Assembly (NCBI RefSeq): GCF_030684315.1
Contig: NC_081394.1
Span: 11,576,658-11,640,657, forward strand
Origin: Stegostoma tigrinum
Taxonomy: Eukaryota
DNA: 64,000 bases
Direction of reading: 5' to 3'
Positions 15,055-64,000 of this stretch are shown piece after piece. A model generated the notes under the pieces. It did no database searches, was not told where the DNA came from, and saw only the letters and a program-made list of their open reading frames with translations. Every line of letters begins with the position of its first letter. Within the stretch, counting starts at the first letter, position 1. The position numbers and the translations under genes were made by a program.

Positions 15055-15950
15055 TCATTGGATGGTTTGGACTAGTCGAGTACATATGTACAGTAGAACA
15101 TTCTTCAACTGCTTTCGAAACTTTTTCTGTGTCACCACATATATACAAGTATTTGTGCAACAGCTCAAAAGTTGCAACATGAAGCCAATATCTCGCCAAT
15201 ATTGATTTAGCCGTACGGCATACCCCAACAACCTCATCCGTATCCATAATGTAGAAGTTAATAGTGGTGACCACAATAGGATAAAATTAGCAGAGATTAA
15301 GAAGAGTAAAATGATGGAATTTCTTCTGTTCTCCATCTCTGTATCTCTAGCATTTACTACATTTGTGCGAGTCCAGATTCTCTTGCGGAGGTTGGTGTTC
15401 ATTAAAATGTGTTTTCCTGTGAATGCGTTCAATAACAAAATAATGATAAATGGGATAATTGGGGTCAGCATATAATGAGCAAACTCGATGGAGCCCCAGA
15501 CCAAAGAGAATTGAACACCTGTTGATACAAAACAAAACCAGGGTTCTTTATGAAGCCGATACAGACCTGTAAACATGAAATACCAGAATATATTCTTCAA
15601 ACCACTCAAAACAGTCATTGCTCCGAGAATTGCAGCCGCTGTTTTCTCAGTGCAGTATCTACTTCTTAGCTTGCGGCAACAAAGAACTACAAAACGATCA
15701 AAGGTGAAAGCGACGGTGAACCATACAGAACAATCAACAGCTGTATACAGCAGGACAGCATGGATATTGCACAAAGGAACAGACATTAGAAAAACGAATT
15801 GTTTCCTAAAAACAATTGGAATCTGTCTCAACATCAGATCGAGGATAACAACGAGTAAATCTGCCGCTGACATGGCTACCAGGTAACGGGTAATCCATCT
15901 TGAGAGACCACACTTTGCCTGAGAGAGGATGACAATCGTGACAATGTTAA
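15055..15950 (-). CDS. GPR139/GPR142-like class A GPCR, copy A, coding exon 2 (TM1 to C-terminus); spliced product 385 aa
   Basis: Polypyrimidine acceptor TTCTTTACAG|TTAAC at 15951. Joins exon 1 in frame (GLA-V-NIVTIVIL); 262+896=1158 nt. Motifs: YLVAMSAADLL (TM2), CNIH...SVWFTVAFTFDRF (TM3), WFC (ECL2), LTPIIPF (TM5), FILLWSP (TM6), LQLLSCCTNTCIY...FR (TM7/H8). TGA at 15057-15055. The ORF-track extension to 16077 is intronic. Confidence 0.92.
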
Positions 15951-16089
15951 CTGTAAAGAAGAAAAAAAGCACAATTGTATTAGATAGCAGCCTGCATATT
16001 TTTTTCCCCATTGCCTCAGAAATAAATGCCATTGAGTCAAAGAGCTGTACAGCATGGAAACAGACCTTTTTGTCCAACTGACCCTTACC

Positions 16090-16790
16090 AATCAGATATG
16101 AAACTAGCCCGTTTCCAGAATTTTGTTCACATTCCTCTGAACTCTTCCTATTCGTATAATGATTCGGATGACTTTTAGATTTTGTTTTGTAATTGTACCA
16201 GCCTCCACCACTCGACTGCGAGAATGTGAGTTCCTTTCAAACTTGCACCAAAATCTGCATGAAAGAAATGTTGCCTGGCATCCTTTAGAAAACTTGCCAG
16301 ACTCAGCTTCAACATATGCACATCAGTTTTGGCCTCACCCACCATAGGAAAAAAGGTCTTGGATTTTCACCCTCTTCATGTTTCTCATGATATTCTATAC
16401 TTGTACAATGTCAGCCATCAAACTCCGATACTCCAGGGAAAAATGCCTCACCTAATGATGCCCTCCCTGTAGCTCAATCACTGCAACCCAGTGTCCTTTT
16501 TTAAAAGCAATGACCTTTTAACTCCTTTCTGAAAACTTCCAAGTTTCACAACATATTTCTGCAGTGGTGAGAACAGAATTCAATGCATTATTCCAAAAGT
16601 GACCAAACAAATGTCCTGGACAGCAGCAGCATGATATTCCAACAATTATTCTGCATTCAATGACCATGACAGGCAAGCATGCATAACACCTTCTTTGTGA
16701 TCCTGTCTACCAGTCATTCCACTTTCAAGCATCTGTGAAGCTGCACTCCAGTATCTCTTTTTTTTACCTTCTGTAACATTCCCCCGGACC
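16090..16790 (-). mobile_element. Old CR1 3' fragment in the GPCR intron, shared by all three copies
   Basis: CR1 RT C-terminal sequence at homologous positions 16090-16790, ~46400-47090 (LECCFQFWSPCYRK..LERVQK) and ~63590-64000 (inverted). Confidence 0.7.
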
Positions 16791-17882
16791 CAATGACTAA
16801 GTTTACTAATTCAAGGAGTGATGTTTTTTTTCATGAATTTTGATATGAAGAAATCAAGTGAAATTAAACGACAAAGCATATAACAAGAAATGGTTGAGCA
16901 AAGTTTTTAGCATAATCCTCCGGTCTGTCATTTTACTCCTCGCCTTCAGATGCATTTGACATAACATTACTTTCAGTTCTGCTGACGCATCATCCACATT
17001 AATGTTTAATATCTATTTCTCTTTCCATAGAAACTGCTTTATGGATAGCCAATGCATCTTTTTTGATTCAGATAATAAGCACAGCCAGAACTTTCATCTT
17101 TTGAATACTATTACATGTTTTTTTTTCAATCAGAATCGAATTTAATTATATCAAATCAGGCACTAAATAAGCAATGAAACAAACTCAAAAAATTATTTTT
17201 AACACAACTTTTAACAAGCATCCCATTTCTGTCTGACCTCCCCTATTCAATTGCCAATTTTCATATTTTAAACAAGACACTGTTTGGAGAGTTGGATGCA
17301 GTCGGTAGATTTCTGTATTCCCTCCCCGTTAAATGTTGCCTTCCTGGTGGTCACCAAATTCCCACAAAATGTCAAGCTGTAGAGTGGCAATGGCTATAAA
17401 TGTACTATTGACATAGTTTTCAACACAGAGTTATGACAGGCAGACTAAAGCAGCATTTCAACTATCGACATCTGGGCCTAAATTGCTGTAGGTCAACATC
17501 TGTCCTACAAAACAGTTATCCAGGAGAACTGAAACTGCTTGATTTTTCCTGAGAGGCAGCATATGCATTCTCAAAGCTGAAGCAATGCTGTTACCTGCTA
17601 CGTAATCGTTCAAAGTTGCACTGCAAATAAAACTCTCTAAAATAATGCAAACAGTATAATTAATTAAAAGTAGTTCACTGGCGAATGAAAACGATAGAAC
17701 TAATATAATTTACTTAGACAGTTGCCTTTTCTTCTTGCATGAAACATATTTTTTTTACCTCTGCTTTGATTTCCAAATTGTTTTCTTAGTCTTTTATGCA
17801 TATTTCACACGGCAGTGTCTAATCACCCGTTTCTTTGAATGACTGTAAAGTTTGAAAAAATGATGATTGCCACTGAAGAAAA

Positions 17883-19097
17883 GAGCATAGAACATAGAAC
17901 ATTACAGCACAGTACAGGCTCTTCGGCCCTCGACGTTGTGCCGACCTGTCATACCGATCTCAAGCCCATCTAACATTTTCTATTCCATGTATGTCCATAT
18001 GCTTGTCCAATGACGACTTAAATGTACCCAAAGTCGGCGAATCTACTACCGTTGCCGACTAAGTGTTCCATTCCCTTACCACTCTCTGAGTAAAGAAACT
18101 ACCTCTGACATCTGTCCTATACGTTTCACCCCTCAATGTAAAGCTATGCCCCCTCGTGCTCGCTGTCACCATACTAGGAAAAAGGATCTCCCTATCCACC
18201 CTGTCTAACCCTCTGATTATTTTATATGTTTCAATTAAGTCACCTCTCAGCCTCCTTCTCTCTAATGAAAACAGCCTCAAGTCCCTCATCCTTTCCTCGT
18301 ATGACCTTCCCTCCATACCAGGCAACATCCCAGTAAATCTCCTCTGCACCCTTTCCAAAGCTTCCACATCCTTCTTATAATGTGATGACCAGAACCGAAC
18401 ACAATACTCCAAGTGCAGCTGTACCAGGGTTTTGTACAGCTGCAGCATAACCTCTTGGTTCCGGAACTCGATCCCTCTATTAATAAAAGCTAAAAAACTG
18501 TACGCCTTCTCAACAGCCCTGTCAACCTGGGTAGCAACTTTCAAGGGTCTGTGTACATGGACACAGAGATCTCTCTGCTCACCTACACGACTAAGAATCT
18601 TACCATTAGCCCCGTAGTTTGGCTTCTGGTAACTCTTACCAAAGTGCATCACCTCACACTTGTCTGCATTAAACTCCATTTGCCAGGTCTCAGCCCAGCT
18701 CTGCAGCTTATCTATGTCTCGCTGCAACCTACAGCATCCTTCGTCACTATCCACAACTCCACCGAACTTCGTGTTGTCTGCAAATTTGCCAACTCATCCT
18801 TCTATGCCCTCATCCAGGTCATTTATGAAAATGACAAAGAGCAGTGGACCCAACACCGACCCTTGCGGTACACCACTAGAAACTGGTCTCCAGGATGAAC
18901 ATTTATCATCAACTACCACCCTCTGTCATCTTTCAGCAAGTCAATTTTCGATCCAAACTGCTATATCTCCCACAATTCCATTCCTCCGTATTTTGTACAA
19001 TAGCCTATTGTGGGGAGCCTCATCAATCGCCTTGCTGAAATCCATATACACCACATCAACCGGTTTACACTCATCTACCTTGTCGGTCACCTTCTCA
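17883..19097 (-). mobile_element. Young 5'-truncated CR1 LINE with target-site duplication
   Basis: Open 231-aa RT C-terminus (LQRDIDKLQSWAETWQMEFNADKCEVMHFG...LEYCVRFWSSHYKKDVEALERVQRRFT) and a (TTCTATG)n tail at ~17886-17900. AAGAAAA flanks both ends (17876-17882, 19098-19104). The site is empty in B at ~48245. Confidence 0.92.
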
Positions 19098-20899
19098 AAG
19101 AAAAATCTCTACAACAAGTTAGACTTATACTTGATTCAGCGGTCGAGACACAGCCACGAGATTACATCGATCAGATGTTGAAGCATTTTCAAATCGACTT
19201 TCTCAGTGTTATTCTTATACAATTGCAGACTTGAGCACAGTTCTGCTGGTCCAGAAGAAGGGGCACAAATACTGACAAGAATAACTCACTTTTTGTAAAT
19301 GAAAAGAAACTGTATTAAGAATATTCTATTGATATACTGCCCATCAAAACATTCAATGATGTTTCTGACATACCTCTCGAACAGGCGTGATTTCAACCTT
19401 GATCTCTCAGTACCACACTCAAAGGTGAAATAATTCAACACTGCATAATAGAATCCAGTTAAATTATTTATTTATTTTAAATCCATATTTCTTGACAATT
19501 TACCCAGGAATGCCATTCCATACATCCAGAGTAGGTGGAGCTTGTACCTCGACTTTGTAGTTGAGGGACTGGCACACTACCATTGCACTGTTAGATCCCG
19601 AACATTGCAAGATGTTAAATTAGTTACAGTCAGCTGTAACAACTCTTCCAGCAGATTCACAGAAAGCTTCCAGCAACAGCTCGCCCACTTGTTTTGTCAA
19701 GCAATAGAACATGCTGGAAAGTGCATTGTCACAAGTAGCCACTTTATACAAGGTGAAACTTGACATTTGATTGAGATTGTCATTACTGTTGATCGTTCTG
19801 TTGAGGCGCTTTTCAGGCATCCAGGCAGTCTCAGTCTCGCACAATTAACTTTAAAAGATATAAACGCAACTTTCAGCAAGGTATTTGTTGAAGGATTATG
19901 TCATTTTATACAACTGCAGTTCAGAGATATCAGCGATGGGGAGATAATGATGTTTCCCCTAAAATTTGTCACTGATAGAAATGGAAATGCTCGTTTATAA
20001 ACAGTAACTGGAGAGTGGGATTGGGGAAAAATGGCTCACACTTGGCCGTTATTTACCTGGCACTGTATATTTGAGAGGTGATTCCTTTTTGAAGCACGAA
20101 TGCGCTGTTGCCGTAAGACAGAAGTGCAGAATTAAGGTAAAAGCAGTGGAACGCAGTGATCAGGTCAATCTTTTTTGCACATCTACTTGGTGAAAGGACA
20201 GTTCTTCCAAGAACTTGATCAAGCTTATGGTGTATTCAAGGTTATTAATAGCGATATAGAATGCAATAGTCAGTAGTTGTGTTAATTCTGAGAAAAACAA
20301 CCATTTGGGCCCAGCTATTTTTTCATGCCAATCACAGTGAAAGAAGTACTGGGGAGCTCAGTGCCTGACAGAAGGAAGAACAAACTTTTAAAAAAGATTC
20401 TAGCCTTTTGGAAATTAAAATGAGTGAGTAGACCAGACACGTTTTGATTGCATCCCTGAGAAAATAGGTATCTATCAACAAATGTTACAGTTAAACTCAG
20501 ATATAGAAGAGCATAAGGAAATTATAGATGTACATTCTGCAAGGAATGTGTGCTTGACGATTATGGGATCACATTCAAAGAGGCTAATAAATGAAACTGA
20601 GTTGCCACGATAAGAAATCTATCCTCTGAAAGTTTTTTTTTCAGTAAGAACTGCTTTGATAAACATCAGATTCAAAATTGGTATCTAATTATGCATTCGT
20701 TAAATTTACGATTTGTAGATGTCACAGAAAACGAAAATGTAGTGCAGGAGATTTAAAGATTGAGTGCACATGTTAGTCGATTGGAAACACAGTTTTATTA
20801 CTTTTGGGTCAGAAGATGAGCAAGGTTTTCTGCAGTCAGTTTGCAACGAAGAAGGCCTTAGTTCTGCAGCAGAGATCTCATGATAAAAGCAAAAGAAAA

Positions 20900-21205
20900 G
20901 CTATCAATCCAGAGACCTAGATAATGTAAAGGGAACCTGGGTTTCAATCCTGATGTCGCAAGTGGAGGAATTTTAACTCAGTATAAATTCAGAATCCACA
21001 GTCAAACGATGACTGTGGATTGATTGTCAGAAGCACCCACCTGCTTTGGAAATGTCCTGTCATGAAGGAAACTGCCATCCTCACCTGTTTTGGCCTCCAT
21101 GCAATTCCAGACACTCAGCAATGTGGTTGATTCACAAACTGTCTTCTGTAGAATTGTCGATGGGCAATGCTAGCTAGGCCTGCGATGAACACACCCATAA
21201 ATGCT
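20900..21205 (+). mobile_element. Ancient tRNA-derived SINE (Deu/SacSINE-like)
   Basis: ccagagacc...ctgggtttcaatcc head plus gaaggaaactgccatcctcacctg...cagcaatgtggttga core. Related copies at ~49900-50170, ~25330-25560 and ~60150-60400 (minus). Confidence 0.5.
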
Positions 21206-22680
21206 AATGGTTTTAAACAAAAGGGATAACACCAAGAAGTCTAAATTAAGATTGCAGTGGGAGAAGAAAGTGGATAGTCAAAATGTTGTCTCAATTGCTG
21301 CAGCTGTGCCATTGTCTTGGAATACGCCAATTAACTAAATCTTATCACAAAATACAAAAAAAAGGAGAAACTGCCAAATCATTGAAATTACAGTTTTCTA
21401 CTTGCAGTAGATAATTGTATCATTATTGGACGTAGGTGATGTTTTCCATTATTTTGTATTTTTAATTTAAAGCTAAAAAAAATCACCCTCTACATGAACG
21501 ATTTGGATTAAAAGTTATACTTAAAATGTTTTGAGTAATTAACGGGAAATTGCATCTTACATTGCATTTGGTTAGTTCAGTTGCAGGTCTAGCTGGTCTG
21601 TAATTCCAATAGCATGGATTCAATGTCTGAGGTTACTGTGAAGATCTTTTCTTCTGAGACTCTTCAGTAATTTGTGACGTGGTGATACTCATGTTATCTC
21701 ATCCTTGGACGTCGCTCTCTAAAGAGATTGCATCCAGGAATTCTGAATTAAATGGATTTCAACTCACAAGGAGCAGCTCTCCAAAAGCATGTGATTTCAG
21801 GTCAACCTGACAGATTATCTCCTGGTGTGCTGTGATTTCCGACTTTGTCCACCCCATTCCAATACCAACACCTCCATATTATGACGTGATATCTGAGAAT
21901 GAATAACAATTTCAAAGTTTGGCGTTTGAGCAAGAAGAAACAAAGGATAGATATAAATATTACAGTAGCGTTGGCAGCAATATGAAGATGTACTCCGCGT
22001 GGATAGATGAGACCAGTGTCAAATGCAAAATGGTAAACAATAAGTGACAAGCTGTACTGATTGGAAAGCACAGCAGGAATTACAAAACCTTCAATATTCC
22101 TCTGGTCCATCAGCAAACAAAAAAAGTGCAATAATTAGCTAATTCCAATTTTAAATTTGAATTAACTGAAATTAGACACCGATTTATTGCACTATTAACG
22201 TATGTAATTGTGTTCCACTGCTGCCAATGATGAGTATATGACGTGCTGTTCACGATTTAGCCCGTTTTAACTGTTTTTTTAAAGTCTAACTTCTTCTTAT
22301 CCGGGAGACTGTACGGTCACGTAATACAATCAGTCAGAACCATTGTGCTCCGTCCCCGTATGATTTAATCTGCTCATACTACTGCAGCCACGTATCTGGG
22401 ATTTCCACATCACTGACACGACTCACGTGAGATCGTCAGCCGATAAGAAATAGGAACAGAACTGGTTTCCTGTCCTTTCCTCTACTCTGAGGTTCCTTGA
22501 TTTCAGCCTTAAGTGTACACATGACCTCTCTCCATTGGCCACCACTTTCATTGCTCTCTGTGGCAATGTCTTCCAACATCTCGGGACCTATCATCTGAGG
22601 AAGAGGTGAGGATTTCTTCCCTGTTTGATATAGCTGGCATCCATCACCATACTTCAAAGGACAGTAGAATGTGATGGATA

Positions 22681-22823
22681 NNNNNNNNNNNNNNNNNNNN
22701 NNNNNNNNNNNNNNNNNNNNNNNNNNNNNNNNNNNNNNNNNNNNNNNNNNNNNNNNNNNNNNNNNNNNNNNNNNNNNNNNNNNNNNNNNNNNNNNNNNNN
22801 NNNNNNNNNNNNNNNNNNNNNNN
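22681..22823. other. Assembly gap (143 N) inside the intron of copy A
   Basis: Run of N. Confidence 1.
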
Positions 22824-24293
22824 TAAAAAATAATTATTTTATGCATCGGTCTGTGAGGAAAAGGGCACCAAAATCAAATACCAAAAGCTGAGTGTGTTTC
22901 CCACATTTGCTATTGCTGGTGTTTGTCGCCATTTGAAATATAAAATGACAACATTGAAGAAAGTAATGGTTAGCGTTTGCCTGGTGTGGGGGTTGCGGGG
23001 TTTGGGGGTGAGATTGTGGCGCATGTAAGTTAAAAGAAATTTTGACTCCAGCAGCCAATTACTTTGCAGTCTTCAATCAGTGGTGAAGTATCGTGTTGTG
23101 TTGAATATAACGAAAAAGCCCGCGATATCTCCTTCTTGAATTGGATTCACTTCTCATACTGCTTCTGGTTTACGCAAATGTGTGAGAATCTTATTGGTAA
23201 GTCAGGTGAACAGTTAACAAACAGCGTGGTTGTGCTTCCTGTTTGCTTCACTGCAGACGATTTATTTTGCACACTGTACTTTGGTCACTGCACATTTTAT
23301 TTACTGAGCCCACATGCCAGAAACAAAAAAAAAATGTACTGTGAATGTTGGACATCCGAGACAGATACATACATCACTGTTGAAACAAAACCGGCCTGGC
23401 AACATCATTCGAGCGAAAAACAGAGTTATCAGGTTGAGATCGAAACTACAGAAGTGTTGCGTGCAAGAATGTGAATCAGGCAAATGTGAATGGTATCATC
23501 GTGTGTGTGTCAGACAAGTGCCAGTGTAATTTCATTAAATGAAGCTTGATGGGTCAAAGAATGCTGGTTGTGTTAGGTGGGTGCCGGAATGAAAGGCTTT
23601 TGTGTGTGGAATTTTTGTGAAATCATCTCACTGTAAGGGTGACCAAGGCAGATTTGCAACAATCTAGACAGGCTGCAGTAAACATAGAATATAGAACACA
23701 AGACGATAAAACACAAGAACAGCAAATTTGGCCAAGATGTTCACATGACACCGAACTAACCATCCCTTCTGTCTGCCTTTCGTCCATATCCCTCAATTAC
23801 TTGTGTATTTATATGTTCATCTAAATGATCCTGAAATGTCCAACATGCCTGGCAGCATATTTTAGATTCCTACTAGCGTTTATGTAAAAAAAAATACTTG
23901 CCACCATATCTCCTCTGAATTTCCTCCACCCACGTCAAATGCATGACCCTAGTATTCTGACATTTCAACTGTATGAAAAAAAATATTCTGACTGTGAAAT
24001 AAACATTGTTTATACAGCAGATGCAGTCGTTCTGAGCTGGAAAAGATCAAAATTATTACGGTGGCAATGGGCACGATTAATCAGAGAGAGAGTTCGGGCA
24101 ATCATTTCGGAACTGAAGCTCCTCAAAAGTTTTGAGCTATTTATTTAAAGTTTATGATTTGGAAACAGAAATAATATTTTAAAAGATGTAAAGAACGAGG
24201 TAGAAATTTTGAGAATTTTCAATATTCCCTGAAAACTATTATAACATACGTAAGAATGGCTTAGGATCTACCGTGGTGGACACAGACACTCAC

Positions 24294-24555: not shown

Positions 24556-24642
24556 TGCAGTAACATCGAAATCAATGTTTCTTCTCTCTCAATGCCTTTG
24601 ATTCCTTGCAGGACTGGAGTTGAAATTTCTGACGACTATGGG

Positions 24643-24726
24643 TTATATATTGAAGGGAACGATTTATAAATAGACCGGGAAACCTCCAGTGACACAATTA
24701 GACTCTGGGTTTATTAGCATCAATTA
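24643..24726 (-). promoter_or_regulatory. Putative core promoter of copy A: TATA box, O/E-like site, two TAATTG homeodomain sites
   Basis: Minus strand: TAATTG (24726-24721), CTAATTG (24701-24695), TCACTGGAG (24692-24684) and TATATAA (24649-24643), about 90 nt before the ATG. All are present at the same positions in copy B. Confidence 0.6.
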
Positions 24727-24822
24727 TAGTCACGAAATGTATAAATTCAAATAACATCTTTTAAGCCCATCTTCCTTCACACGTACAAGCATACAGACCC
24801 AGGCTGACAGACACAGGGGCGT

Positions 24823-24823
<1 letters not shown>

Positions 24824-24888
<65 letters not shown>
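24824..24888. repeat. (CA)n microsatellite upstream of the copy A promoter
   Basis: About 32 perfect CA units. The homologous position is the N gap in B and the (TG)n tract at ~60885-60916 in C. Confidence 0.98.
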
Positions 24889-24890
<2 letters not shown>

Positions 24891-29370: not shown

Positions 29371-31379
29371 TTTATATCTTCTTTTTGTACTATAACATCT
29401 CCATTAATAATATCTCCTGAGTTTTCTTCGTAAACTCTTTAACAATCTTTGATTTTGTCAAATCCTGCTGAACACCTGAGTCATTGGGAAAAAAAAGAAG
29501 GAATTTCAAACTCAATAAGAGCGCAGTTTCAACGGTTCTTGTTGTTCATTTGTGTATTTCATTTTACACCGATCCTCTGGTATTAGAATTCAACAGGTAC
29601 TTGCAGATCATAGATTGTTTCTGTACCTATGTCTCTTCAGGCCATCACTTTCATGGAAACCCTTTGACAGTGTTATCAAATTTTACACAATTAATAGCAG
29701 TTCCCCATAACCCTACATTTATTTCAGAATTATGTATTCATCCAATTCGGCTTTGTAACTTGTACTCCATTCTGCATGATCCAGAAGCCTGGTATCCCTT
29801 ACTACTGCTTGCCATGACAAACGATTTTGTTGCTGTCTCACTGGTTTGGCTCATCTGCTGATTCTATTGTCGTTAGCCCTCTGGTTACATCTCACAACAC
29901 ACTTGGGAAAAAATAATAAATTTATTCATTTGAGAGATATCTTTCAAAATTAGGAGAGCAGCCTTCTGTGGAATCTCACAATCGGTCCTGCATGAGGGAG
30001 AGCACTTCCACCTTCTTCAGTCTCCATATGAAATTGTTTTGTTTTTATTGCCTTTTATTCTCCTCTGTGGAGTTAGATGAGATGTATGAAGTTATTTTGG
30101 CATTTCCTGCTGCTGAAGTCAATGGTATTGCCCTGTGTTAACGGGGGACTAGCGATGCTTTTGTTACTGTGATCATTCTTCAGAGATGTGGTGACAGTCA
30201 TTGTCTTGCTGCACCTTTCCTTCCCTTTTAAATGATTACCCTTCGAGTATGCAACTTATTCCTTCTTGAAAATTATTACTGTAAGCTTTGAGTGAATGAG
30301 AACCATGCTCGTCTGCTGAATTAAGTGTCATTACTCCACATGTTAGCATTTGTGTGCTGCACTATCAGTCAGACACATCATTGCACTTGCCTGTCAAGAA
30401 TGGCATAATAGATTGGAAATGAGACCGTGGGGGACGGGATTGTTTATTCAAGAGCACTCTTCAAGTAATAATAAAAAGATAAAACATCACTTTGAAAGCC
30501 ATATTAGGCGTTTTCATGAATTTGCAGAGTTATTGAACCTCCCAAAGGAAAAAAAATGGATGGCTTTCTGTGAGGGCAAGTTCTGTGAGACTTCAACTAT
30601 TTGGGAGCGTCATAAAGTTGGGTACGTTAAGACTTGGCCACAGTCAATGAGGGGTGATGTCAGAAGATCGGTCACTGGGGTCAAATTGGGGTTTGTGACA
30701 TGGGCGCCAGGATGGTCTGATTTTGTCAGAATACTTATTGGTAAGTCTGGCTGTCATCCTACACACGTGGTATATTGGAATCAAGATGGAATTATGTCAG
30801 AATCAACTTTTGGTCAGTTCAGTTAACGAGGGAGTTAAGACTGGATTTGTGTCAGAGTTTTTTGTGCAGTCATGCCACTGTCAAGTTATTATCACGCCAG
30901 GATGAGGGCGTGACAAGTCAAGGTCAGGGTTATTTGGTTCAGTCAGAAAGAAGTTTGTTTTGTGCCGGGGTGCAGTGCTTTTTGATTCATACACAAATGA
31001 AGCTTTTTTGAAATAGTCTATATCTACCTCACTGGCGTACACTTGCTCTTAGTCTCAAAGTTTGTTTCTTTTCACCTCCTGCTCCCTGCTATCATGAATC
31101 AATATTTAGTTATTCTTGTGACCACATTTTCCCCATTGGACGGTTTGAAATCTGCTACACCTGTAAAGAGAAACTAAGAACGAATATGTAAATATGACTT
31201 ACTTACGATTTCAATTTAGCTGAACAGATAATGATTGTGAATGATAGTCTTGCAGGGGACAGAATAAAATGCAAAGCTCATCCACTGGCAACAATAACAT
31301 TGTGAAAAACAATATTGCAGGGTAAATGTTAAAGCGGCAGAGCAGCTTGGAATGTCAGTATTGAATAAGTGCTGCTCAT

Positions 31380-31720
31380 GTGGAGCAGCTGAATGGCTTC
31401 ATGGTTAGCACTGATGCATCTTAGTGCCAGTTACGTAAATTCAACCCCACTTTTGGGTAACTGTTGATTTGGAGATTGCACATTCTCCCTGAGCCTGCCT
31501 GAACATTCTCCTGGTGTTTTAGCTTCCTCCGCCAATCAAAAGTGTGAAAAGTATGTGGATTGACCATGCTAATTTTCCCACAGTGCTCACAGATGTGTAC
31601 ATTCAATGTAAGAGCCATGGGAAATGCAGGGTTGCAGGGAAAGGGGGTGTCAGCGTGGAATGTTAATTGGAGGATTGGCGTGAATTTGTAGGGCCTACTG
31701 GTCTGTTTCCATGTTGTAGA
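31380..31720 (+). mobile_element. HE1-like SINE (paralog of 1585-1930)
   Basis: tggttagcactgatgc head, ttggagattgcacattctccc core and gggcctactggtctgtttcca tail. Confidence 0.7.
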
Positions 31721-32309
31721 GCTCATACTGAGGGAGCATTGCAATGTTGAATTGATTGCATTTACAAGAGTATCATCTGATCAAAAGTTTAGCCCTGTGT
31801 GAGATCTGCAATATGAAACGGGCATAAATGAAGAAATCATGCAATGAATGACAATGATTGGGAATCAATACCCTCTCTGACGATTAGCAGAATGAGCTCA
31901 TTAAGGTCAAAAGAGCAGGTCGAAGGAAGAGTTGCACAGTTAAAGTGCCGGTAATGAGGTACAACTGGAATTTTATGCAATCATGCAGGGAGTTGAGTAC
32001 TGTCAGAAGAACTGCATTGCCAGATGTTCACAACCGAGGGAGATCTGTACTGTCTGATGTTCAACATTATGTTTTTTTTTTGCACGGCTATCTTATCCAT
32101 AAGTAGCATGGGCTACTGTTTCGGACTTTGCCAGTAGTTGGCTGTGTGTCAAATAATTTTCCAAGAGAGGCCACAACACTATGTATCACTCCATCAAAAT
32201 GATCGGAAGTAATTGTACCTTCACTAATCACACAGATCAGCATGGAGTCAATTGAGGACTGAATTGATTACAATGATTTTCATTTTATTGATTTATTGCA
32301 AAAAATAAG

Positions 32310-33990
32310 TCTCAAGCGTTGGCAGCAATTTTCGGAAAGAAGTGCGTAGTGAATGATCCATCTTGGCCTCCTCCAGTAGACCCCAGCATTACAGATACCA
32401 GTCTTCAGCCTATTCGAATCTCTCCACGTGATATTAAGACATTGTTGAAGGCATTGAATACTACCCAGCCTCTGGGTCCTGACATCATTCCAGCAATTGT
32501 ACTGAAGACATGTGATCCAGAACTTGCCGCTCGCCAAGCCAAGATACTCCAGTACAGTTACAATGCTGGTATCTTCCTGGCAAGATGAAAAATGTCCAAA
32601 TGTGTCCTTTACACTTCAAGCAGGACAAATCCAACCCAGCCATTTGCCGCCCCATCAGTCTACATTTGATCATCAATGAATTGATGGAAGGTGTCATCAA
32701 AAGTGCTATCAAGCAGTAACTTCTTGGAAATAACCTGCTCAGCGATGACCAAATTGGGATCTGGCAGGGCCACTCAGCTCATGCTCTCAATACACTGTTG
32801 GTTCAAATTTGAACAAAAGAGCTAAATTCCAGAGGTGAGGTGAGAGTGACAGCCATTGCTATCAGGGCTACAGTAGAACGAGTGTGGTATCCACGAGCAT
32901 GAGCAAAACTGGAATCAATGCGTATCAGGGTCAAAATCCTTGTTGGAGTTGTAATTGACACATAGGAAGATGGTTGTGGTTGCTGGCAGCCAACTGTCTC
33001 AGCTGCATGAAGTGTGTGTTGTGTTTCGTCAAGGTATTGCCCTTGGCCCAACCATCTTCAGATGCTTCAGTTATGACGTTCTGTCCATGATAAGTCCGGA
33101 AATGGAGATGCTCGCTGACGATTGCACAATGTTCAGCACAATTCGTGACTCCTCAGATAATGAAGCAGTCCATGTAAACATGCGGCATTTTTGTACAATA
33201 TCATGGGCTTTGGCCTGCAAGTGGCAAGTGACATTTGTTTCACACAAATGCCAAGCTATGAAAATCACCAATAAGATGCAATCTCACGACCATCCCTTAA
33301 CATTTACTTGTGATAACATCTATGCATACCCTACTATCAATATGCTGGTGGTTATCATTGACTACAAACTTAGCAGGACTCACCACATTAACACATTGGC
33401 TGCAAGAGCCGGCCAGAAACTCAGAATACTGCATCGAATTGCGAACTTCCTGAACCCTATATGCTTGTATGCAATTGACAAGGCACAAGCCAGGACGCTG
33501 ATGGAAAGCACCCAGATGCCTGGTGGAGTGCAACCACAACAAGATTCAAGACGTTTGACAACACCCAGGCAAAAATAACGCGCATCATTGACATTACATC
33601 CATGAACATCCACTCCCTCCACCACCGACACTCATTAGCAGCAGGGAGCATGTTTTATGAGATGCCCAGCAGAAATTCACCAAAGATCCTCAGACAGCAC
33701 CTTCCAAACAAACCACGAATTCCAGGACAAGGGCATCATATGTATGGGAACACCAACACCTTCAATTTCCCCTCCAAGTCACTCACCATCTTGACATGGA
33801 AATATATCAAAGTTCCTTCACTGTTGATGGGTCAGAATCCTGGAATTCCATCCCTAATAACATAGTGATTCGACCCACAGCAGGAGTACTGCAGCATTTC
33901 TAGAACACAGTGCACCACCAAATGTCAATGGTAACTAGGGTTAGGCAAGAAACCCTGGCCAGTCGACATTGCCTCCATCCCACAAATGAA
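32310..33990 (+). mobile_element. Degraded CR1/L2-group LINE
   Basis: ALNTTQPLGPDIIPAIVLKTC, QGIALGPTIFRCF..MLADDCT and KWQVTFVSHKCQAM. Absent from the homologous site in block X (~1035). Confidence 0.85.
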
Positions 33991-34996
33991 CAGAAAAATA
34001 AACTAAAAAAGAACCTCAATGTTGGACATTCACATCAGCACCAGGGAATTTAAAAATGGAACATACACAATGTATTTCTTATCAAAGGAATTGGCACTGT
34101 GTGATTCATAAGCTGAAAATAGGTCGTTTCATGAACTTTCCCTTGAATCCAGTGATGCTGTTGATTAATGTGCCCAAGCAAGTCAGGATAAGCATAAATC
34201 TGAATCATGAGGAGAACAACAATATGTAGGAATGATGTATTGAGAGGCAAACATAGAGATGCTCACACATCACATACTGTACAATCCACAGAACCGATAG
34301 ATTACTGAACATCCAAACTCGGAAAGATGGATTGCCTGTGAACATAGTGTCAACCAAACCCAGATCCTGCGCAGTTACATGGTCAGAGACCACAAATAAT
34401 TTCAACATCAAGATTTTGAGAAGCAAAGGAAAACATTCCTAGAAAAAAATACTCACTTGGTCTGGGAGAATCTGTGAGGGGAAAAAAAAAAGAAAATAAA
34501 GAGATAATGTTTCAGGTCTGGTTACCCTTCCTCAAAAGGGCCTGTTCTGAGAGTCACTGGTCCTAGAACATTAATTCTGTTTTTGTCTTGCTTTAGAGAG
34601 GCTGCCAGACTTGCTGGCCATTTCCAGCAACATGTCATTATTCATGCATTTTAGCATCCACAGCTCTTTCCGTTTTTATTGAGATCTTTCCCTGTTTGTG
34701 TCTATCTCATTCAGCTGTTATCTTGAACATATGTATTTTCTCTCAGCTTGCAGTTCGCTTTAACGTATTTTTCTTCTGATTACATGTAAACTGAAATCTG
34801 TATTTGCGTTCATCTCTCTACTTATGTAGTTTTCTTAGTCCACGTGTGTCGCTCTCTTTCTATTCAATCATGTTCTAGCACAGTATTCCACATATTCTGT
34901 CTGGTTTTATTTATTTCTGCTTCCTTTTCTCATCTGTTTACTTTTTAAAAGTCTTACTACCTATCTGACTCACAATCTCTCGCCACTGTGTGCATG

Positions 34997-35000
<4 letters not shown>

Positions 35001-35035
<35 letters not shown>
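35001..35035. repeat. (TC)n microsatellite, counterpart of the (GA)n at 31-52
   Basis: Directly visible. Confidence 0.95.
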
Positions 35036-35038
<3 letters not shown>

Positions 35039-35139
35039 ATTCTGTCCTCCTCTGTGAAGATCAACATCATCCTCCGACGTCTAACACCCACGACCGACAA
35101 GATCCCTCTACCTCTTCCATTCTAAGTTGTTGACTGGAA

Positions 35140-42460: not shown

Positions 42461-45388
42461 CCTAGGAATGAACAGTTCCCACTACCTCTTCTCAGGCACT
42501 GTTGCCCACAACTCTTTCACTCCCATCACCTGCTCACACCACTACAGAAGTTTTCTAAGTAATCGGAGAAGGCTCAATATTTGCCCAGTCCTCACCTTCC
42601 TCCTCAGTACCTGAGGCCATGGCTGCATTTCCAAGTCACCCAAGGAGTTTTCTGCATTTCATTCAATCAGTTTCATTGAACGGTTTAGGATAGTCAGGGA
42701 TTATTTACATCAGTAATGAAGGTTGCATAATAACTTTGAATCCAAACCTTTTTTTCCTCGAATGCAAAAAAAAAATGTAATTTTGATCTTGTGTTGTTTT
42801 AAACTCAGCCTATCTGGCAACTGAATTGTAATATTTGTCAAAGTCTCTTATCTCCTCAATGCATTTCCGACTACATTTCCCAACCACACTCCTGAATTCT
42901 TGGCTATTATGCTGTCCTCTTATCTATTCATACTACCTCGTTTTTCAGAAACTCTCTTTACTTTCCAAGGAGCTGTAGCCCCCCTTCCTGGAAACCTAGT
43001 AATGTTTCTACTTGAACACTTTTGACTAAATCCAAGGCCTTGCGCCTGCTTCCACCGAGCCCGGTGTCCTCTCTCTCAAAATTCAATGTTGAGAGTATCC
43101 ACTCCCACAATCACCTATCAACACATTGGCCTTAGTGTCTGCTCAGAGAAACATCCATCACGTGTAAGTCACAGAGATAAAAAAATGAGTGAAATTGAAA
43201 AGGAGTAAGTAGAATGTCATTGGGAAAGCTGATATCAATCTGAAAATGTTGATGGATAGCGAGTGACAGTCAATTGTGCCATGGTGCCAGTTTCAAATAC
43301 GTAGTAAGAAAGAAAGCACGACTAAAATAGTGCATTCGATCACAAAGCATTGACAAGTGGTTCTTTTCGCATTCAATAAAAGTTTTTGCTTAAAGACATG
43401 ACCACAGCATTTTCTTTAAATATGCTTATTTACTAAGTAAGAATAAAACATGTGGTAACAAAGCAAAAAAAAGATAAACAATAACCTCATCTGCTTCATT
43501 CTGGGTCCCTACGATTGATTTTTCTTCTCGAGTCTGAGTTTCATTCCTGGGAATATTAACAATTCAGGGCTGAGTGAACTCCAATATCTTGCAACAAAAC
43601 TCTCCCTCTCGTACAGTGCCTCAAACAGCAAGTACAGAAAACAAACAGTCTTACTGTGTCAGCTTCTCCATTTGCTTGAATGCCTATACTCCTGATTTGG
43701 CTGGCTGGTTCGGCTGCAGAAATGTTATCCATGAGAACTATACGGCAGCTTTTGTAAATAAGTGCCCTCTCATTCTAAATGGAGTAGTGAGCAAGGAGCA
43801 TGACACTGAACTCGATCTCCCCAGAATTTGTTTCATCAGGATCGTTGCTGCCAGTGGCCAGTGGGGATTACATTTTATGCCCTGTGCCTAGTGTGAAAAT
43901 AAAGGTAACTGGCAGGAATCTGAGACAAGAGAATCAGACAACAAGACAACAGGAAAGACAACTCCTGCTGATTTATCTCTTTGTGAGCTTTCGGTGGAAT
44001 CAACATTTGTAACTGCATTCAGCTCATTTGCCAGTTGCAGAGTGAAAAATAAGTATTGAAGGAGGCATTGAAAAACATCAATGACGATCTCCTCCAGTCT
44101 TGGTATTGAAGATTTTTTAAAAATGTAACCTCGTCAAGCTTAATCTGTCGTTTGTTGTGTCGAAGGCATTTTTCACTTGAAAAAACCATGAATAAGAAAC
44201 AGATTTTTTTGACATTTCAACATGTCAAAACTTCATTTCTTACTGAATTATACTCCAAACCCTATGCTAAACATATTCTTCTGTAAATCTGAAATTCTAA
44301 GCTTTCCTTAATCTGATATTTATGTGTGACATGCTCCAATATCTAGCAGTTTCAATTACTTCAGATTTTAATCTCTGAATCTTACCAGAATTTGAAACAG
44401 ATAGGATGTTTCTGAATTTTTTTAACTGTCTCTCCTAGTAAACAACATTAACTAGCATCTGGGATTGTTAAACATTGTCAAGGATTATACATCTTTCCAT
44501 ACTGTGGACGTCAGATTTTGCTTATATTCCAATGTCTGAGATGCAGAAGGTTGTGTGCTTCTTCTATTTTACTTCAGTTGCAGTTGTCCTGTGTCTCATG
44601 GTGATTGTCAGCTGGCGAGGTATCTGATGATGTTTTCCATTTTGAGCCCTATTGCTTGAGTGTATTTGGAAATGGCATCGACTGACAGACAACTGCCATG
44701 TCCATTGGCTCGATAATTGTCGTCATTCACATACCCATGCACCATGGCGACTGAACCATAAATCAACGGAAATATCATGAGGAATAACGCATTCCGCGAA
44801 TTCTCAACCAGGAAGTGGACAGCCAAAATTTCTAATATGCCATTAATGATGTGAACCTGGTCTTCCAATCAATAATTAAGCACAGAACCAACTGCAATGG
44901 TTAAAGAAAGTTTGATCAGACCATCTCAGATTTCTCCGAGTACAGAAGGAACATATCCTACACCCCCAATAGTCGATCATTCTTAATGACAGGAGCTCTC
45001 CTTCTACTTTTACTCATGTTAGTCACTAGGTTATAATTCTCTTACCTCTGTGATGAGCAAAAGGGCACACCTCAAATACCTTAGAGAACAATAATGTCCA
45101 GAGGCGACAATAAGATGGAGGGACCAGCTGTGTTTCCTGACTTATTTTTCACAGCATAAGCTGCTCCTCCCGTTGAGAGCCATTTGTGAGAGCCATTATC
45201 TCTTTCCTAACCCAAGGTGACAGGGCATTACTTTATTTCTGTAACTCCAATGAGGATCAGGCAAAACAGCTATGTTTGTGCAAATTTTCTGACTTTTTAA
45301 CTAATAAGAAAAATCACATCGACTGTATGCTAAATGTGATCAAAAATCAAAAATTCTCCATAAACTCAATTTTTGAACAGGTACATCA

Positions 45389-55113: not shown

Positions 55114-55374
55114 CAGCGAGACCAACAATAGCGAGGATGGCGTAGTAAATTGCTTGAATAACCCGAAGCACATATTTGATCCGAAATTTTAAAACCAAAT
55201 CATCATAGCTTGTTGAAAGATGCTAAAGTGCCGTGATGAAAGTTCTGTTCATTGTTGCAACATGCCAATCAATTTATTCTGATTCTCATTAACTTCTGTT
55301 ACAGCCCAATCTATTGATTTTAATGGCTGAATCATGGTTGTAACATCCCAATCTGTCTTCAATCTCTGCAGCAT
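55114..55374 (-). pseudogene. GPR139/GPR142-like GPCR copy B, exon 1 (disrupted)
   Basis: Colinear with exon 1 of A (MLQRLKTDWDVTTMIQPLKSIDWAVTEV...KYVLRVIQAIYYAILAIVGLA) with donor G|GTGAGT at 55113-55108. It is 261 nt versus 262 in A (1-nt deletion near 55271-55278) and has TAG at 55225-55223 where A has TAC (Tyr). Confidence 0.85.
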
Positions 55375-55461
55375 TGCTGTGACATTGAAATCAATATTGC
55401 CTCTCTTTCAACACCATTGATTCAACGTAGCTTTAGAGGCAAAATTTCCAACGACTATTGG

Positions 55462-55537
55462 TTATATATTGGAGGGCGAAATTTACAAAGAAAATATCAG
55501 TATAACCTCCAGGGACGCAATTAGCCAGCATCAATTA
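55462..55537 (-). promoter_or_regulatory. Putative core promoter of copy B: TATA box, O/E-like site, two TAATTG homeodomain sites
   Basis: Minus strand: TAATTG (55537-55532), CTAATTG (55524-55518), TCCCTGGAG (55515-55507) and TATATAA (55468-55462). Confidence 0.6.
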
Positions 55538-55578
55538 CAGTCAGTAAATATTTTTCTTTAAAAAAGCACATTTTAACC

Positions 55579-55709
55579 NNNNNNNNNNNNNNNNNNNNNN
55601 NNNNNNNNNNNNNNNNNNNNNNNNNNNNNNNNNNNNNNNNNNNNNNNNNNNNNNNNNNNNNNNNNNNNNNNNNNNNNNNNNNNNNNNNNNNNNNNNNNNN
55701 NNNNNNNNN
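55579..55709. other. Assembly gap (131 N), probably over a CA microsatellite
   Basis: Run of N at the position homologous to the (CA)n at 24824-24888. Confidence 0.95.
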
Positions 55710-58945: not shown

Positions 58946-59699
58946 ATAACTGCATGCAATCCAAACTCTTCAATTCTGGTCAAATTTGGTTGGAATTTAT
59001 GACTTCTTGACAACGGTACCTCACAGATATTCACCATGTCTGCAGTACTATATCCCAAAATTCGTCTCAAAAGCCGGTCCGCTGCCTTCTGAATGGATCT
59101 CCTTCCTTGCTTCACACAGTGCGATTGTCCTTTTGCAATCCTCTGCCCAGTCGTGTTGACTGCTGTGCCGTCTCTCTGAATTCCTCTCAGAAACGTCTCT
59201 CCCGCCTTCTTATTGGATAACAATCAGATTTTTGTGTGGAAACTCAAATGACATTTGCCGCAAAAAAACACTATCCTTTTCTGCAGCGCAACAATTGTCA
59301 TTTGGACTGTGGTTTCAATTCTGGACTTCATACCTCCGTTTGTGTCGATGAGATTAGTCTTTGTCTGTTGTGATTGTTCACTTCACTGTAATCATTTTGT
59401 CCAAGTCTGGATCTTTTCCAAGTTTGAACCGATGTTCACACATCTTCAAATAGCCAGATAAGTTGAAGATATGATATGCTTGTCATTATTGGCTTGGATA
59501 CGATTTTAATCATCTTTCAAAACTTTCAGTTTTGTTGAATTCAAAACCAGAAGGAAATTGTTTGAACAGTAAATGAGCTCATGTGAATGTCGGAAGCATT
59601 CAGAATTTGATGCCCAATTTACATTTTTTTTGCAACTGCATACCGATCTGCCATTGAAATTTCTAGAACCAAGACATTGTTGTCTGACTTGCAATCCCT

Positions 59700-62600
59700 T
59701 TGCCATATTGGAGCATTTTGGAGATCAAGCTGGTAAAATGCAACAGTCCAACTTTTAGGCCGAAGATTTACTCACTTTCCAATATACGTCACAGAATCAG
59801 AGTTACAAGAAGCACCCGATAAAGTGAAATGGAGATAAATATGCGATGATTAAAATGAGAACAATAATTCCTTTCACAGACGATTGTGATACATGTATCA
59901 TTCAGTATAGGCTGAGAAAGAAAAATGATCAGTATCTTTGGGCATCGGGACAGCTGAGTCTGTAATGGGCTCCAACTGCCATGTGAACCATTCAAATGCC
60001 TGCTTTGTATGTTTTAGTTTTCCTGATATATCATTGGACTTCAGAATTTAATGTCGCTTTTTTGGCTTCTCAATAACTTTTCTCTCATCATTCATGGTCT
60101 ATGAGTGTTCCCGAATTGACAGCGACTTCCTGCCTACATACACTGTCACTTCGGAAATTAAGAGTCAAACATAATACAGTGTGTCTCGTGTCAACTGTAG
60201 GTACAGACCAGGCAAGAATGACAGTAACGTCCCCAGTAGATATCAGTGAGCCAGATGGATTTTCTTTATTTTCCCTAACAATCTGCCGCAGTTCTATTCG
60301 ATTCTTAGTTTCAACATTTTATTGAATTCGAATTCCACCATATGTCCTTTTGAGGACACTACCTGTGCATCTGCATTAACCACCCAATGACAGTAATAGC
60401 CCATCTTCTTCTCAGTTCAATGACAATTATAGATGGACAATAAATGCTGTTTATTTATGCTCACCTCCAAAAAGGTAATATTAAAATTATATTCAGAACT
60501 TGATACTAATGTCCCCTTTACTCTTTCCTGTTATTTCACGGTAGGTAAAAAAAGGTAAATACATAACTTTAGAATCACGGTGCGTGCTGGTTTTAATTTA
60601 CAAGCTGATGTTAATCCAATGAGCCATTTTGTCTCTGCTTCTATAAAGTTCATACGCTTTCAATTTTCGGTGGAGGGGTTTTTTTATATCTATATATCTC
60701 TGTATTTTTATGCCTATATATCACTTCTTTTGAACAGTTTTCACAAGTATTCTTTGCATCTGCTGTGACTGTAATATCAAAAGATGTCGTAAAAATATGG
60801 TTAAGCGTATTATTATTTATATGACCTTTCATTAGACACTCACGAGAAAACCCAAATAGAAATCACTTTTTTAATGTTTGTGCTTGTGTGCGTGTGTATG
60901 CGTGTGTGTGTGTGTGAACATGGGCTGCTTCAGTATCTGAGCAGTGGTGACTATGGCTGAATATTGTGCAATCATTGGTGAACATCCCCAAACCAATCTT
61001 ATGATTGAGGGATTATCACTGATGAAGCAGTTGTACATCGTTGTGCTTAAGACACTAGTCTGTGGAAATCTTGCAGATAGGTCCTGGAGCTGAGATGGTT
61101 GATCTCCCACAACCATGACCATCTTCCTCTGTGTTAGATATGAATTCAACCAGCAGATAGTTTGTCCTGGATACCCATTGATTCCAGTTTTGCTAGATCT
61201 CCTGGATGTAACACTTGTTCGAATGTCGCCTTGATATCACCTCACCCCTGCAATTCAGCTCTTTTGTCCGTGTTTAAAATAACGCTGTAATGAAGTCAGG
61301 GGTTGACTAGCCCTTGGATAACCCAAGCTGGGCATCATTGATATTTCTGAGCAGGTCCTGCTTGATAGTTCTGTTGGTGACATCTTCCATCACTTTACTG
61401 ATGAATGAGAGGAGATTGAAAGTATGGTGATTGGCTGGGTTGGATCTGTCCTGCTTTTTATGTACAGGACACAGTTGGGACATTTTCCACATTTTCAGGC
61501 AGATACCAGTGTTGTACCTGAACTGGTATTGCTTGTTTAAAGGAGCAGTAAATTCACGAGAACAAGTCTTCAGTACTCTTGGTAGAATTTTTTCAGGGCT
61601 GGTAGCCTTTGCAGTATCCAGTGTCTCCAATCTTTTCTTGATATCACGTGGAGAGACTCTCATTGGTTGAAGACTAATATCTGTGATGCTGGAGACTGGA
61701 GGTGACCAAGATGGATCATCCACTCGGTACTTCTGTCTGAAGACTGCTGCAAATGCTTCAGCCTTATCTATTGCCATGATGTGCTGGGCACTTTCATCAT
61801 TGCGGATGGGAATGATTGTGGAGTCTCCTCCTCCAGTGAGTTGTTTAATTGTTCACCATCAATGATAACTAGATTTGGCAGGACTGTAGAGATTAGATCT
61901 GATCAGTTGGTTGCACTATTGCTTAGCTCTGTATATCACTTGCTGCTTTCGCTGTTTAGTGTGCCAGAAGTCTTGTCTGGTGGCTTCCCCAGGTTGATAC
62001 CTCATCTTCAGGTTTGCCTGGTGCTGCTCCTGGCATGACTTGCTGCACTCTTCATTGAACCCTGGCTGATACCCTGCTTTGCTGTTAATGTTTGACTGGG
62101 AGATATGCCAGGGCATGAGTTGACAGATTGTGCTGGAGTACAATTCTGTTGTTGTTAATGGCCCGCAGCATCTCATGGATGCCCAGTCTTCAGTTGCTAG
62201 ATCTGTGCAAATGCTGTCCCTTTGGCACAGTGATAGTGCCACACAACAAGATGGAGATTTTTCTCAATGTGAAGGCGACACTTTGACTCCATAAGATTGT
62301 GCATTTGTCACTCTCTCTGATTCTGTCTTCAACAAATGCAACTGCAGCTGGTAGATAAGTGAGAATGAGGTCAAGTAAGTTTTCCCCACTTGTTTGTTCC
62401 CTCACTACCAGCAGCAGACCCAGTTTAGCAGCTAGGTCTTTTAGGACCCCACCAGTTCAATCAATAGTTCTGCTGACGAGCTACTTTTTGTGGTGGATAT
62501 TGAAATCCGCCATTTACGTTTTGTGCCCTTGAAATCGTCAGTGTGTCCTCAAGATGATGTTCAACATTGAGGAATATGATTCATCGGCTGAGGGAATATG

Positions 62601-64000
62601 CTGTCTGGTGAAGAGCAGGAGGTTTCCATGCCCATCTTTAACTTGAAGCTATGAGACTTCATGAGTCCCAGATTCAATTTTGAGGACTCACAGAGCAACA
62701 ACCTCCCGACTGTAAACCACTGTGTTGTCCCTTCTGCCTTATCTATCCTACTGGTGATACAGGAAGTATCCAGGGTAGTAACGGCCATGTCTGGGACATT
62801 GTCTGTAAGGTATGTTCCCGTGAGTAAGATTATGTCAGGCTGTTGCTTGACTAGACTGTGAGATAGCTCTCCCAATTTTGGCAGCAAACACCAGATATTA
62901 GAGAGGATGAATTTACATGTTTGATGGGGCAGTTTTTGACTTTGACTTTTCTGGTACCTGGGTCGATGCCAGGAAACCCATCTTTGCAATATTTATAAAG
63001 CTTTACTTTGAAACGTCATGTTGAACTACTAAGTAGCAGGTCTCAGTTCTGCTTCAAACTCGAAAATGAACGTGAAACCTCACAAGCAAATTCCTGGCTG
63101 TTTCACTTCTGATGGATAGCTGCTTGCATAGAACACATCATGTCTCAGAGGTCCGTAGTTGAAAGGTTACTTCAGTCTGCCTTTATATCTGTGTGTAGAA
63201 AACACCGTGATTAGCACGTTTAAAATCGTGGTCACTCTGCAGCTTGGCATTCTGTAAGGAGTTGGTCACCACGAGGAAGGCAAAGCTGGGGACTCTGAAA
63301 ATCTGAAACAAAAACGTGCCCATCATACTTTTTTTTTGGTAGGAGAAACCTGCATTAATGTTTTCTGGAGATCATCACTCTGCAGAGTTATAAGTAATAT
63401 TTATCTAAGTGTTCTAAACACATGGAGTAAAATGACAGATACCAGGATCACCCTGAAAATTTTGCTCAACTATTTCGTGTTATCCTCTTGGTCCATCGAA
63501 TTTCAGTTGATAAATAACGTGTCACAATCTGTCATATTTGTTGTTTCAGGAAATATCATTTCAATCCATCACTCGATGAAACCCATAATGTCCGGGAAAT
63601 GTTGCTAAACAAGGGGGTATTAGATTGTAGATTCATAATTCCTCGAAATTGGAGTCGCTGAGTGACAGGGTAGGAAGATGTATTTGGTATAATTGTTTTT
63701 GTTCGTCAGAACATGGAGAATAGAAGATGGATGTTATGATGCTGCTATACACGACATTGGTTGGGCCACGTTTGGTATATTGCAAACACTTCTTATCTCC
63801 CTGCTATCTTTATGAATTTGTGAAACTTGAAAATTTCAGACAGAACTTACAAGAATGTTGCTCAGGTTGAGGGTTTGTTATATAGGCAGATGTAAAACAG
63901 GCTGAGGCATTTTTCCCTGGGCTGTCAGAGGCTGAATGATGACCTTATAGAAGATCAGAAAATGATGAGAGGCAAGGAAAGAGTGAACAGCCAAAATATT
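59700..64000 (+). pseudogene. Inverted, internally deleted third GPCR locus (copy C): 5' flank and 3' part of the intron only
   Basis: 59700-60916 is the reverse complement of the A upstream region (~26020-24830). 62990-64000 is the reverse complement of the distal intron (B ~48005-46700; A ~17650-16400). No exon 1 lies between them. Confidence 0.72.
60917..62985 (-). mobile_element. Degraded CR1/L2-group LINE (same family as 32310-33990), 3' end missing
   Basis: LVKQQPDIILLTGTYL (APE), ENLLDLILT and AEAFAAVFRQKYRVDDPSWSPP...CPVHKKQDRSNPANH. The RT sequence stops abruptly at the (TG)n at 60916. Confidence 0.87.

Follow-up and report, generated by a model that had tools for sequence, protein, structure and literature searches.

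A large family of GPR139-related receptors in cartilaginous fishes, with a candidate role in chemical sensing

We analysed a stretch of 64,000 nucleotides from the zebra shark, Stegostoma tigrinum (assembly GCF_030684315.1, contig NC_081394.1, positions 11,576,658 to 11,640,657; "the window" hereafter). It contains an intact G-protein-coupled receptor (GPCR) gene (gene A), a dead receptor copy (B), and a non-coding paralogous remnant (C). Searches with gene A and its relatives point to a large lineage-specific expansion of this receptor in cartilaginous fishes, evolving by birth and death, and place it as an apparently distant branch of the GPR139/GPR142 group. The window is an ordinary corner of this family, and the finding is the family itself: its genes were already annotated in RefSeq under the name of their best hit.

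Family size and taxonomic range

Of the 3,704 candidate clusters, made at 90% identity, 1,923 matched exon 2 of gene A at E ≤ 1e-3. The counts below come from the best 120 of these, the share of the family among the remaining 1,803 not being established, and they are counts of protein-database clusters, in which two assemblies may be mixed, rather than genome-wide gene counts. The best 120 include 119 clusters from nine shark species and one unnamed: 49 from Heterodontus, 35 from Heptranchias, 16 from Stegostoma, 9 from Rhincodon, 4 from Pristiophorus, 2 each from Scyliorhinus torazame and Chiloscyllium, and 1 each from Carcharodon and Mustelus. An earlier, sequence-only reading of this stretch had proposed a lineage-specific birth-and-death expansion, a proposal that turned on there being more than a few copies; the zebra shark has at least 16 clusters at 90% identity among the best 120. 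Ten of these 16 lie on one 19.0-Mb sequence (78-100% identity), and nine full-length proteins of that sequence form a clade made of zebra shark members only (support 1.0). The stem of this clade is long (0.31), and the best 120 contain no whale shark or bamboo shark member above 64%.

A profile built from 30 family proteins recovered 131 representatives at 50% identity (E ≤ 1e-30). Our deep set consists of 50 near-full-length members (46 representatives plus four further matches, fragments excluded), and all 15 of its named members come from cartilaginous fishes, among them skates, a stingray and Callorhinchus. The earlier reading had proposed an elasmobranch family; the Callorhinchus member makes it chondrichthyan-wide. 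Paralogue clusters, a pseudogene, a species-specific clade and 131 deep representatives all agree with the proposed expansion.

Some database models of the family seem to be flawed. The N-terminal start of models P0061 and P0044 matches a long interspersed nuclear element (LINE) fragment at 18674-18826 of the window, so some "GPR139" models probably carry spurious LINE-derived N-termini. The P0175 cluster (a Chiloscyllium family member) includes a record named as a RING-type domain protein, possibly a fusion or a mis-joined model.

Gene A

Gene A lies on the minus strand and has two coding exons (7TM, seven-transmembrane region; TM, transmembrane helix):

24555-24294, minus strand: exon 1, coding part (262 nucleotides), from the ATG to a GT donor in phase 1; encodes the N-terminus and the beginning of TM1
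15951-24293, minus strand: intron of 8.3 kb, phase 1, GT-AG
about 17880-19100: high-copy LINE-like fragment inside the intron
15950-15055, minus strand: exon 2 (896 nucleotides including the stop codon); remaining 7TM region, helix 8 and stop
14941-14946, minus strand: candidate polyadenylation signal

The spliced product has 385 amino acids and is 100% identical to the S. tigrinum RefSeq protein XP_048379912.1, which carries the automatic name "probable G-protein coupled receptor 139". Domain, motifs and predicted fold identify the product of gene A as a class A (rhodopsin-like) GPCR. It matches the Pfam domain 7tm_1 (56.3-57.4 bits, cut-off 30.5) and nothing else at E ≤ 0.01, with no Srw, olfactory receptor (OR), V1R or class C domain match in that scan. 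Class A hallmarks are in place: D172-R173-F174, the cysteines C148 and C227 of the disulfide between TM3 and extracellular loop (ECL) 2, and N354..Y358. An AlphaFold model of moderate quality (predicted local distance difference test score, pLDDT, 61.7, and below 50 in ECL2) has seven long helices, and the top Foldseek matches of this model are all class A, the best being peptide receptors such as CCK1R. The class A proline at 6.50 (residue 316) is present in gene A but replaced in most of the family, being found in 6 of the 120 nearest and in 7 of the 50 deep members; position 7.50 is T, not P.

Relationship to GPR139 and to other receptors

Among solved structures, human GPR139 (PDB 7VUG and 9M42) is the top sequence match both for gene A (E 9e-12) and for the family profile (E 2e-15). 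Gene A is 24-28% identical to it (24% by Foldseek, about 76 identities over 298 residues by alignment); GPR139 orthologues in zebrafish and chicken are reported as 70% and 92% identical to the human protein (PMC7318219). GPR139 is described as a two-exon gene (PMC7318219), as is gene A, but it has one copy and the shark family has many. Low identity, the absence of the polar pocket residues described below and the many copies rule out a GPR139 orthologue (GPR142 was not compared directly), and uphold the earlier view that this is not the conserved neuromodulatory GPR139.

Against the family profile, GPR139 scores 60 bits. Amphioxus relatives score higher (87-101 bits), as do orphan receptors from a coelacanth (164) and a salamander (174). 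We built two trees, one with FastTree from 91 sequences and one with IQ-TREE (fast mode) from 34, both rooted on a distant protein; true GPR139 and GPR142 are absent from them, so the placement of these two rests on the scores. Chondrichthyan sequences group together in both trees (FastTree 0.51; IQ-TREE SH-like approximate likelihood ratio test, SH-aLRT, 87), and their sister is an amphibian/sturgeon orphan (FastTree 0.90; SH-aLRT 94). This orphan comprises 20 amphibian clusters, each from another genus and 66-74% identical, plus one sturgeon sequence; one cluster per genus is what a conserved single-copy gene would give. Its members (Pleurodeles XP_069092602.1, and others from Xenopus, Microcaecilia and Acipenser) are labelled "probable GPR139" and are 25-29% identical to gene A. 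The amphibian orphan and the gene A subfamily share R2.61, an acid at 5.39 and R6.59; unlike the gene A subfamily, the amphibian orphan has kept K6.51 and N7.39 and has an invariant pocket. It is apparently an unnamed single-copy GPCR, mis-labelled as GPR139, with a basic pocket (R2.61, K6.51, K6.55 and R6.59).

The next-nearest vertebrate relatives by profile score are coelacanth and teleost orphans (Latimeria XP_005988539.1, 164 bits), which form a separate clade in both trees and keep R6.51. They may correspond to the GPR210A/B receptors described by Rinne et al. 2019 (PMC6504862).

The shark family resembles OR, TAAR, V1R/ORA and V2R/OlfC receptors in its tandem clusters, pseudogenes and species-specific clades, and perhaps also in its variable pocket and in a putative promoter layout with homeodomain and O/E-like sites. 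It differs from them in sequence and in having a coding intron in TM1; with 7tm_1 the only Pfam match and GPR139 the nearest solved relative, membership in OR, TAAR, V1R or V2R is ruled out. Large expansions arose independently in protostomes within the same broad peptide-receptor branch, namely nematode srw and mollusc srw and FMRFamide-receptor-like genes, for which we claim no orthology. Relatives of this receptor group in nematodes (srw) and in Aplysia are described as expanded candidate chemoreceptors (PMC3963977). Srw matches occur in 16-74% of the members of Atlas neighbours.

Binding pocket and sequence variability

The agonist site of GPR139 is reported to combine hydrophobic residues (F109, H187, W241) with polar ones (E108, R244, N271) (PMC7318219). 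Since the AlphaFold model of gene A is only of moderate quality, we assigned pocket positions by alignment to conserved motifs. At the hydrophobic positions gene A has Y156, H246 and W314, and these are largely shared by its 120 nearest relatives (Y/F in 113, H in 116, W in 120), and less so in the 50 deep members (F/Y in 20, H in 12). At the polar positions (3.32, 6.51 and 7.38/39) gene A has L155, L317 and F344. No deep member has an acid at 3.32, 4 of 50 have R/K at 6.51, 2 of 50 have N at 7.39, and none has all three; R/K at 6.51 is kept in 14 of 14 non-chondrichthyan relatives. The polar residues of the GPR139 pocket are thus not kept, and the inference of ligands from GPR139 does not carry over. 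This weakens the earlier argument that a GPR139-like receptor would be an amino-acid odorant receptor, and we reject a receptor for free Trp or Phe working by the GPR139 mechanism, the equivalents of E108, R244 and N271 being gone.

Across the 50 deep members, the entropy of the predicted pocket (23 positions) is 2.73, against 1.12 at 97 cytoplasmic TM positions, and the same comparison in 20 amphibian orthologues gives 0.02 against 0.47, although the deep members are paralogues of 46% mean identity and the amphibian sequences orthologues of about 80%. Between 46 and 50 of the 50 deep members retain DRF, the disulfide from C3.25 to ECL2, W6.48, N7.49 and Y7.53. The pocket thus appears to vary across subfamilies while the motifs that face the G protein stay constant. 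In the 120 nearest relatives the hypervariable part is instead the outer face (ECL1, ECL2, the top of TM6 and ECL3), with a ratio of extracellular to intracellular entropy of 2.67, against 0.78 in amphibians. We infer a repertoire in two tiers, in which old subfamilies would differ in their cores and younger ones at the rim. Such a repertoire would suit ligands of peptide size.

Paralogous loci in the window

The second receptor locus, B, has the layout and splice sites of gene A:

55374-55114, minus strand: pseudogene B, exon 1
46280-45386, minus strand: pseudogene B, exon 2
8900-11946: flank downstream of A; its paralogue downstream of B (65-69%) is 39633-44249

The two-exon layout with nearly all of the 7TM region in one exon, noticed earlier in both A and B, is borne out by exon coordinates and splice sites. 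Exon 1 of B has a 1-nucleotide deletion near 55279 and a TAG at 55225-55223, and exon 2 a 1-nucleotide deletion near 46003, in intracellular loop 2. With two such deletions and one stop codon, B is a pseudogene; an additional stop at its codon 34 was discarded as an artefact of gap placement. Four sequencing runs of one sample cover the intron of gene A evenly, as expected of genomic DNA, and in the genomic runs no change restoring a lesion is listed for B, nor does any listed contig piece span the three lesions.

Paralogy of 64-72% extends through promoter, intron and downstream flank of A and B, so whole genes were duplicated, in a unit of at least 16 kb; the blocks shared by A, B and C are well past chance (blastn E 1e-20 to 0). 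Between A and B, dS is 0.46 and dN/dS is 0.29 overall and 0.24 over the 7TM region, and this last value indicates that both copies were long under selection and that B died late. A dS of 0.46 suggests old duplications despite the clade being restricted to the zebra shark; loss, missing annotation or fast evolution in the zebra shark may lie behind this.

At the third locus, C, only non-coding blocks were found:

59720-60916, plus strand (inverted): upstream flank, 66% identical to 25989-24840 of A, ending in the same GT microsatellite
60918 to about 62990, minus strand: LINE-like sequence at the expected place of promoter, exon 1 and 5' intron
62983-63992, plus strand (inverted): 3' part of the intron, 66-77% identical to the 3' intron of A and B

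Between the two paralogous C blocks there is no match to the promoter, exon 1 or 5' intron of A and B. The LINE-like sequence there matches 32295-33175, which overlaps an RVT_1 match, at 70%. Exon 2 of C is predicted to start at about 64,400, past the end of the window, so the coding status of C cannot be read from the window. No third receptor coding remnant was found in the window by tblastn with 122 family proteins or by a six-frame search with the family hidden Markov model. The window therefore shows two receptor genes and one non-coding remnant: of the three paralogous loci in 50 kb described earlier, the intact A, the pseudogene B and the inverted paralogy of C stand, and a third receptor gene is rejected, as C has no coding sequence between 1 and 64,000.

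The GT microsatellite lies at 24820-24890 in gene A, about 100 nucleotides upstream of the promoter motifs; the matching spot holds an N gap in B (55579-55709) and the LINE junction in C (60880-60916). The window contains another inverted pair of duplicated blocks without coding sequence, 21-3631 and 29507-35038 (65-69% identity). A LINE at about 32290-34010 interrupts the latter, and the former contains three clustered TAATTG sites at 1057-1117. Neither block has a match to the A/B promoter, and neither has a receptor coding remnant by tblastn or six-frame model search.

Promoter layout

Upstream of A and B we identified similar arrangements of short motifs:

24642-24726, minus strand: putative promoter of gene A; TAATTG at 24721-24726 and 24695-24700, O/E-like site at 24683-24692, TATA-like box at 24642-24652
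55461-55537, minus strand: putative promoter of B; two TAATTG sites, O/E-like site at 55506-55515, TATA-like box

Within 85 nucleotides, each putative promoter thus combines a TATA-like box, one O/E-like site and a pair of homeodomain-type TAATTG sites. Mouse OR promoters are reported to be enriched in O/E, homeodomain and TATA motifs, and the O/E consensus used here comes from the same source (PMC3247239). We counted 4 TAATTG pairs in the window, compared with 0.75 in 60 shuffles. This OR-like layout lends weak support to olfactory use.

Possible functions of the family

We put at roughly one half the probability that the family is a repertoire of peripheral chemical sensors, most likely in olfactory neurons. 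Counted in favour of chemosensation are the size of the family, its contrast with a single-gene sister, the variability of the pocket, the promoter, the srw precedent and the small OR repertoire of sharks, reported as no more than about 10-50 genes in animals whose olfactory organs are large (PMC10116579). Under this proposal each subfamily would detect a different water-borne ligand, and peptides or other metabolites would be likelier ligands than free Trp or Phe read in the manner of GPR139. The homeodomain and O/E promoter would direct expression to sparse neurons, and signalling might use Go or Gq together with TRPC2. Such a route is present in catshark olfactory neurons, described as microvillous and positive for Go and TRPC2 (PMC10116579), and GPR139 is reported to couple chiefly to Gq/11 (PMC7318219).

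Several observations weigh against chemosensation. Variable pockets and birth-and-death evolution are also typical of the immune GPCR families FPR and MRGPR. The deep pocket is fairly fixed in the 120 nearest relatives (0.75 vs 0.52, p = 0.28), and the nine local zebra shark proteins show no excess of variation in the pocket (0.23 vs 0.32) or on the outer face (ratio 1.31, p = 0.14). No positive selection was seen between A and B (extracellular dN/dS 0.23). The entropy contrast of the deep set is affected by its greater divergence, and some of its representatives are perhaps faulty gene models. As to the promoters, those of A and B are not independent, because they descend from one ancestral promoter; the O/E-like site of gene A has one mismatch, and two of the four TAATTG pairs lie at 1057-1112, where there is no gene. 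Even the true OR genes of catshark are reported to be expressed mostly outside the nose (PMC11979771). The main text of the same paper makes no mention of GPR139, and its top-50 list for "brain and olfactory epithelium" contains no GPCR at all, not even a V2R, and is therefore uninformative on this point.

The family might instead consist of immune sensors, that is, leukocyte or epithelial GPCRs for microbial or host peptides that were diversified by pathogens, like FPRs and MRGPRs. We regard this as unlikely, though it has points in its favour: hypervariable ECL1, ECL2, ECL3 and TM6 top in the 120 nearest relatives fit large peptide ligands, and MAS1-related receptors of bony vertebrates are reported as absent from cartilaginous fishes (PMC8455134). 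No immune gene lies within this 64-kb window, and the promoter layout is OR-like, an argument tempered by EBF being also a B-cell factor. Linkage to immune genes would not tell the two readings apart, because mammalian TCR and MHC regions contain OR clusters too. Less probable, in our judgement, are internal receptors for peptides or metabolites (in gut, rectal gland, gonad, sperm or the neuroendocrine system), expanded for reasons other than external sensing. GPR139 and its protostome sister receptors take peptide or aromatic ligands (PMC8557429, PMC7318219), a snail FMRFamide-receptor-like expansion was read as neuroendocrine (PMC11589774), and the best Foldseek matches are peptide receptors such as CCK1R. 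The pocket of a receptor for an endogenous ligand normally stays constant. The amphibian sister gene fits this (entropy 0.02); the shark family, at 2.73, does not, and it has frequent pseudogenes and species-specific clades besides.

We consider it rather improbable that copy number mostly drifts neutrally, with LINE-rich, duplication-prone regions multiplying a small two-exon gene whose copies are mostly redundant. Such drift would leave a window like this one: within 50 kb a single receptor gene is intact, a second is dead and a third is reduced to a gutted remnant, LINE fragments occur at various sites, including one that replaces exon 1 of C, and the pocket varies little in the local zebra shark clade. 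Drift accounts poorly for a dN/dS of 0.24-0.29 between A and B, for the ten or more full-length annotated paralogues, 78-83% identical, on the same 19.0-Mb sequence, and for 131 subfamily representatives below 50% identity with signalling motifs intact.

A bolder form of the olfactory proposal, which we offer tentatively and think somewhat doubtful, is a fifth vertebrate olfactory receptor family: a GPR139-related, peptide-type receptor that would have become the largest odorant repertoire of cartilaginous fishes, expressed one per neuron from homeodomain and O/E promoters, in parallel to the srw-type expansions of nematodes and molluscs.

Significance

A literature search, in which subscription journals were not covered, found no paper describing this chondrichthyan expansion. 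Neither the expansion nor GPR139 is mentioned in the passages searched of the zebra shark (PMC10620051) and whale shark (PMC8455134, including supplements) genome papers, and the expansion is not mentioned in those of the catshark paper (PMC11979771), of a GPR139 review (PMC12208981) or of a vertebrate GPCR survey without sharks (PMC6504862). Cartilaginous fishes have been described as relatively poor in GPCRs (PMC8455134). Whichever explanation holds, it is misleading to call these gene models "GPR139". A large mis-named GPCR family outside the four-family chemoreceptor surveys makes the shark olfactory paradox directly testable. If immune, the family would be a new class of shark innate sensors; if olfactory, it would be a vertebrate family of odorant receptors with an origin of its own. 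Should the fifth-family proposal prove true, it would overturn the picture of sharks as animals that are poor in GPCRs and smell with 10-50 receptors.

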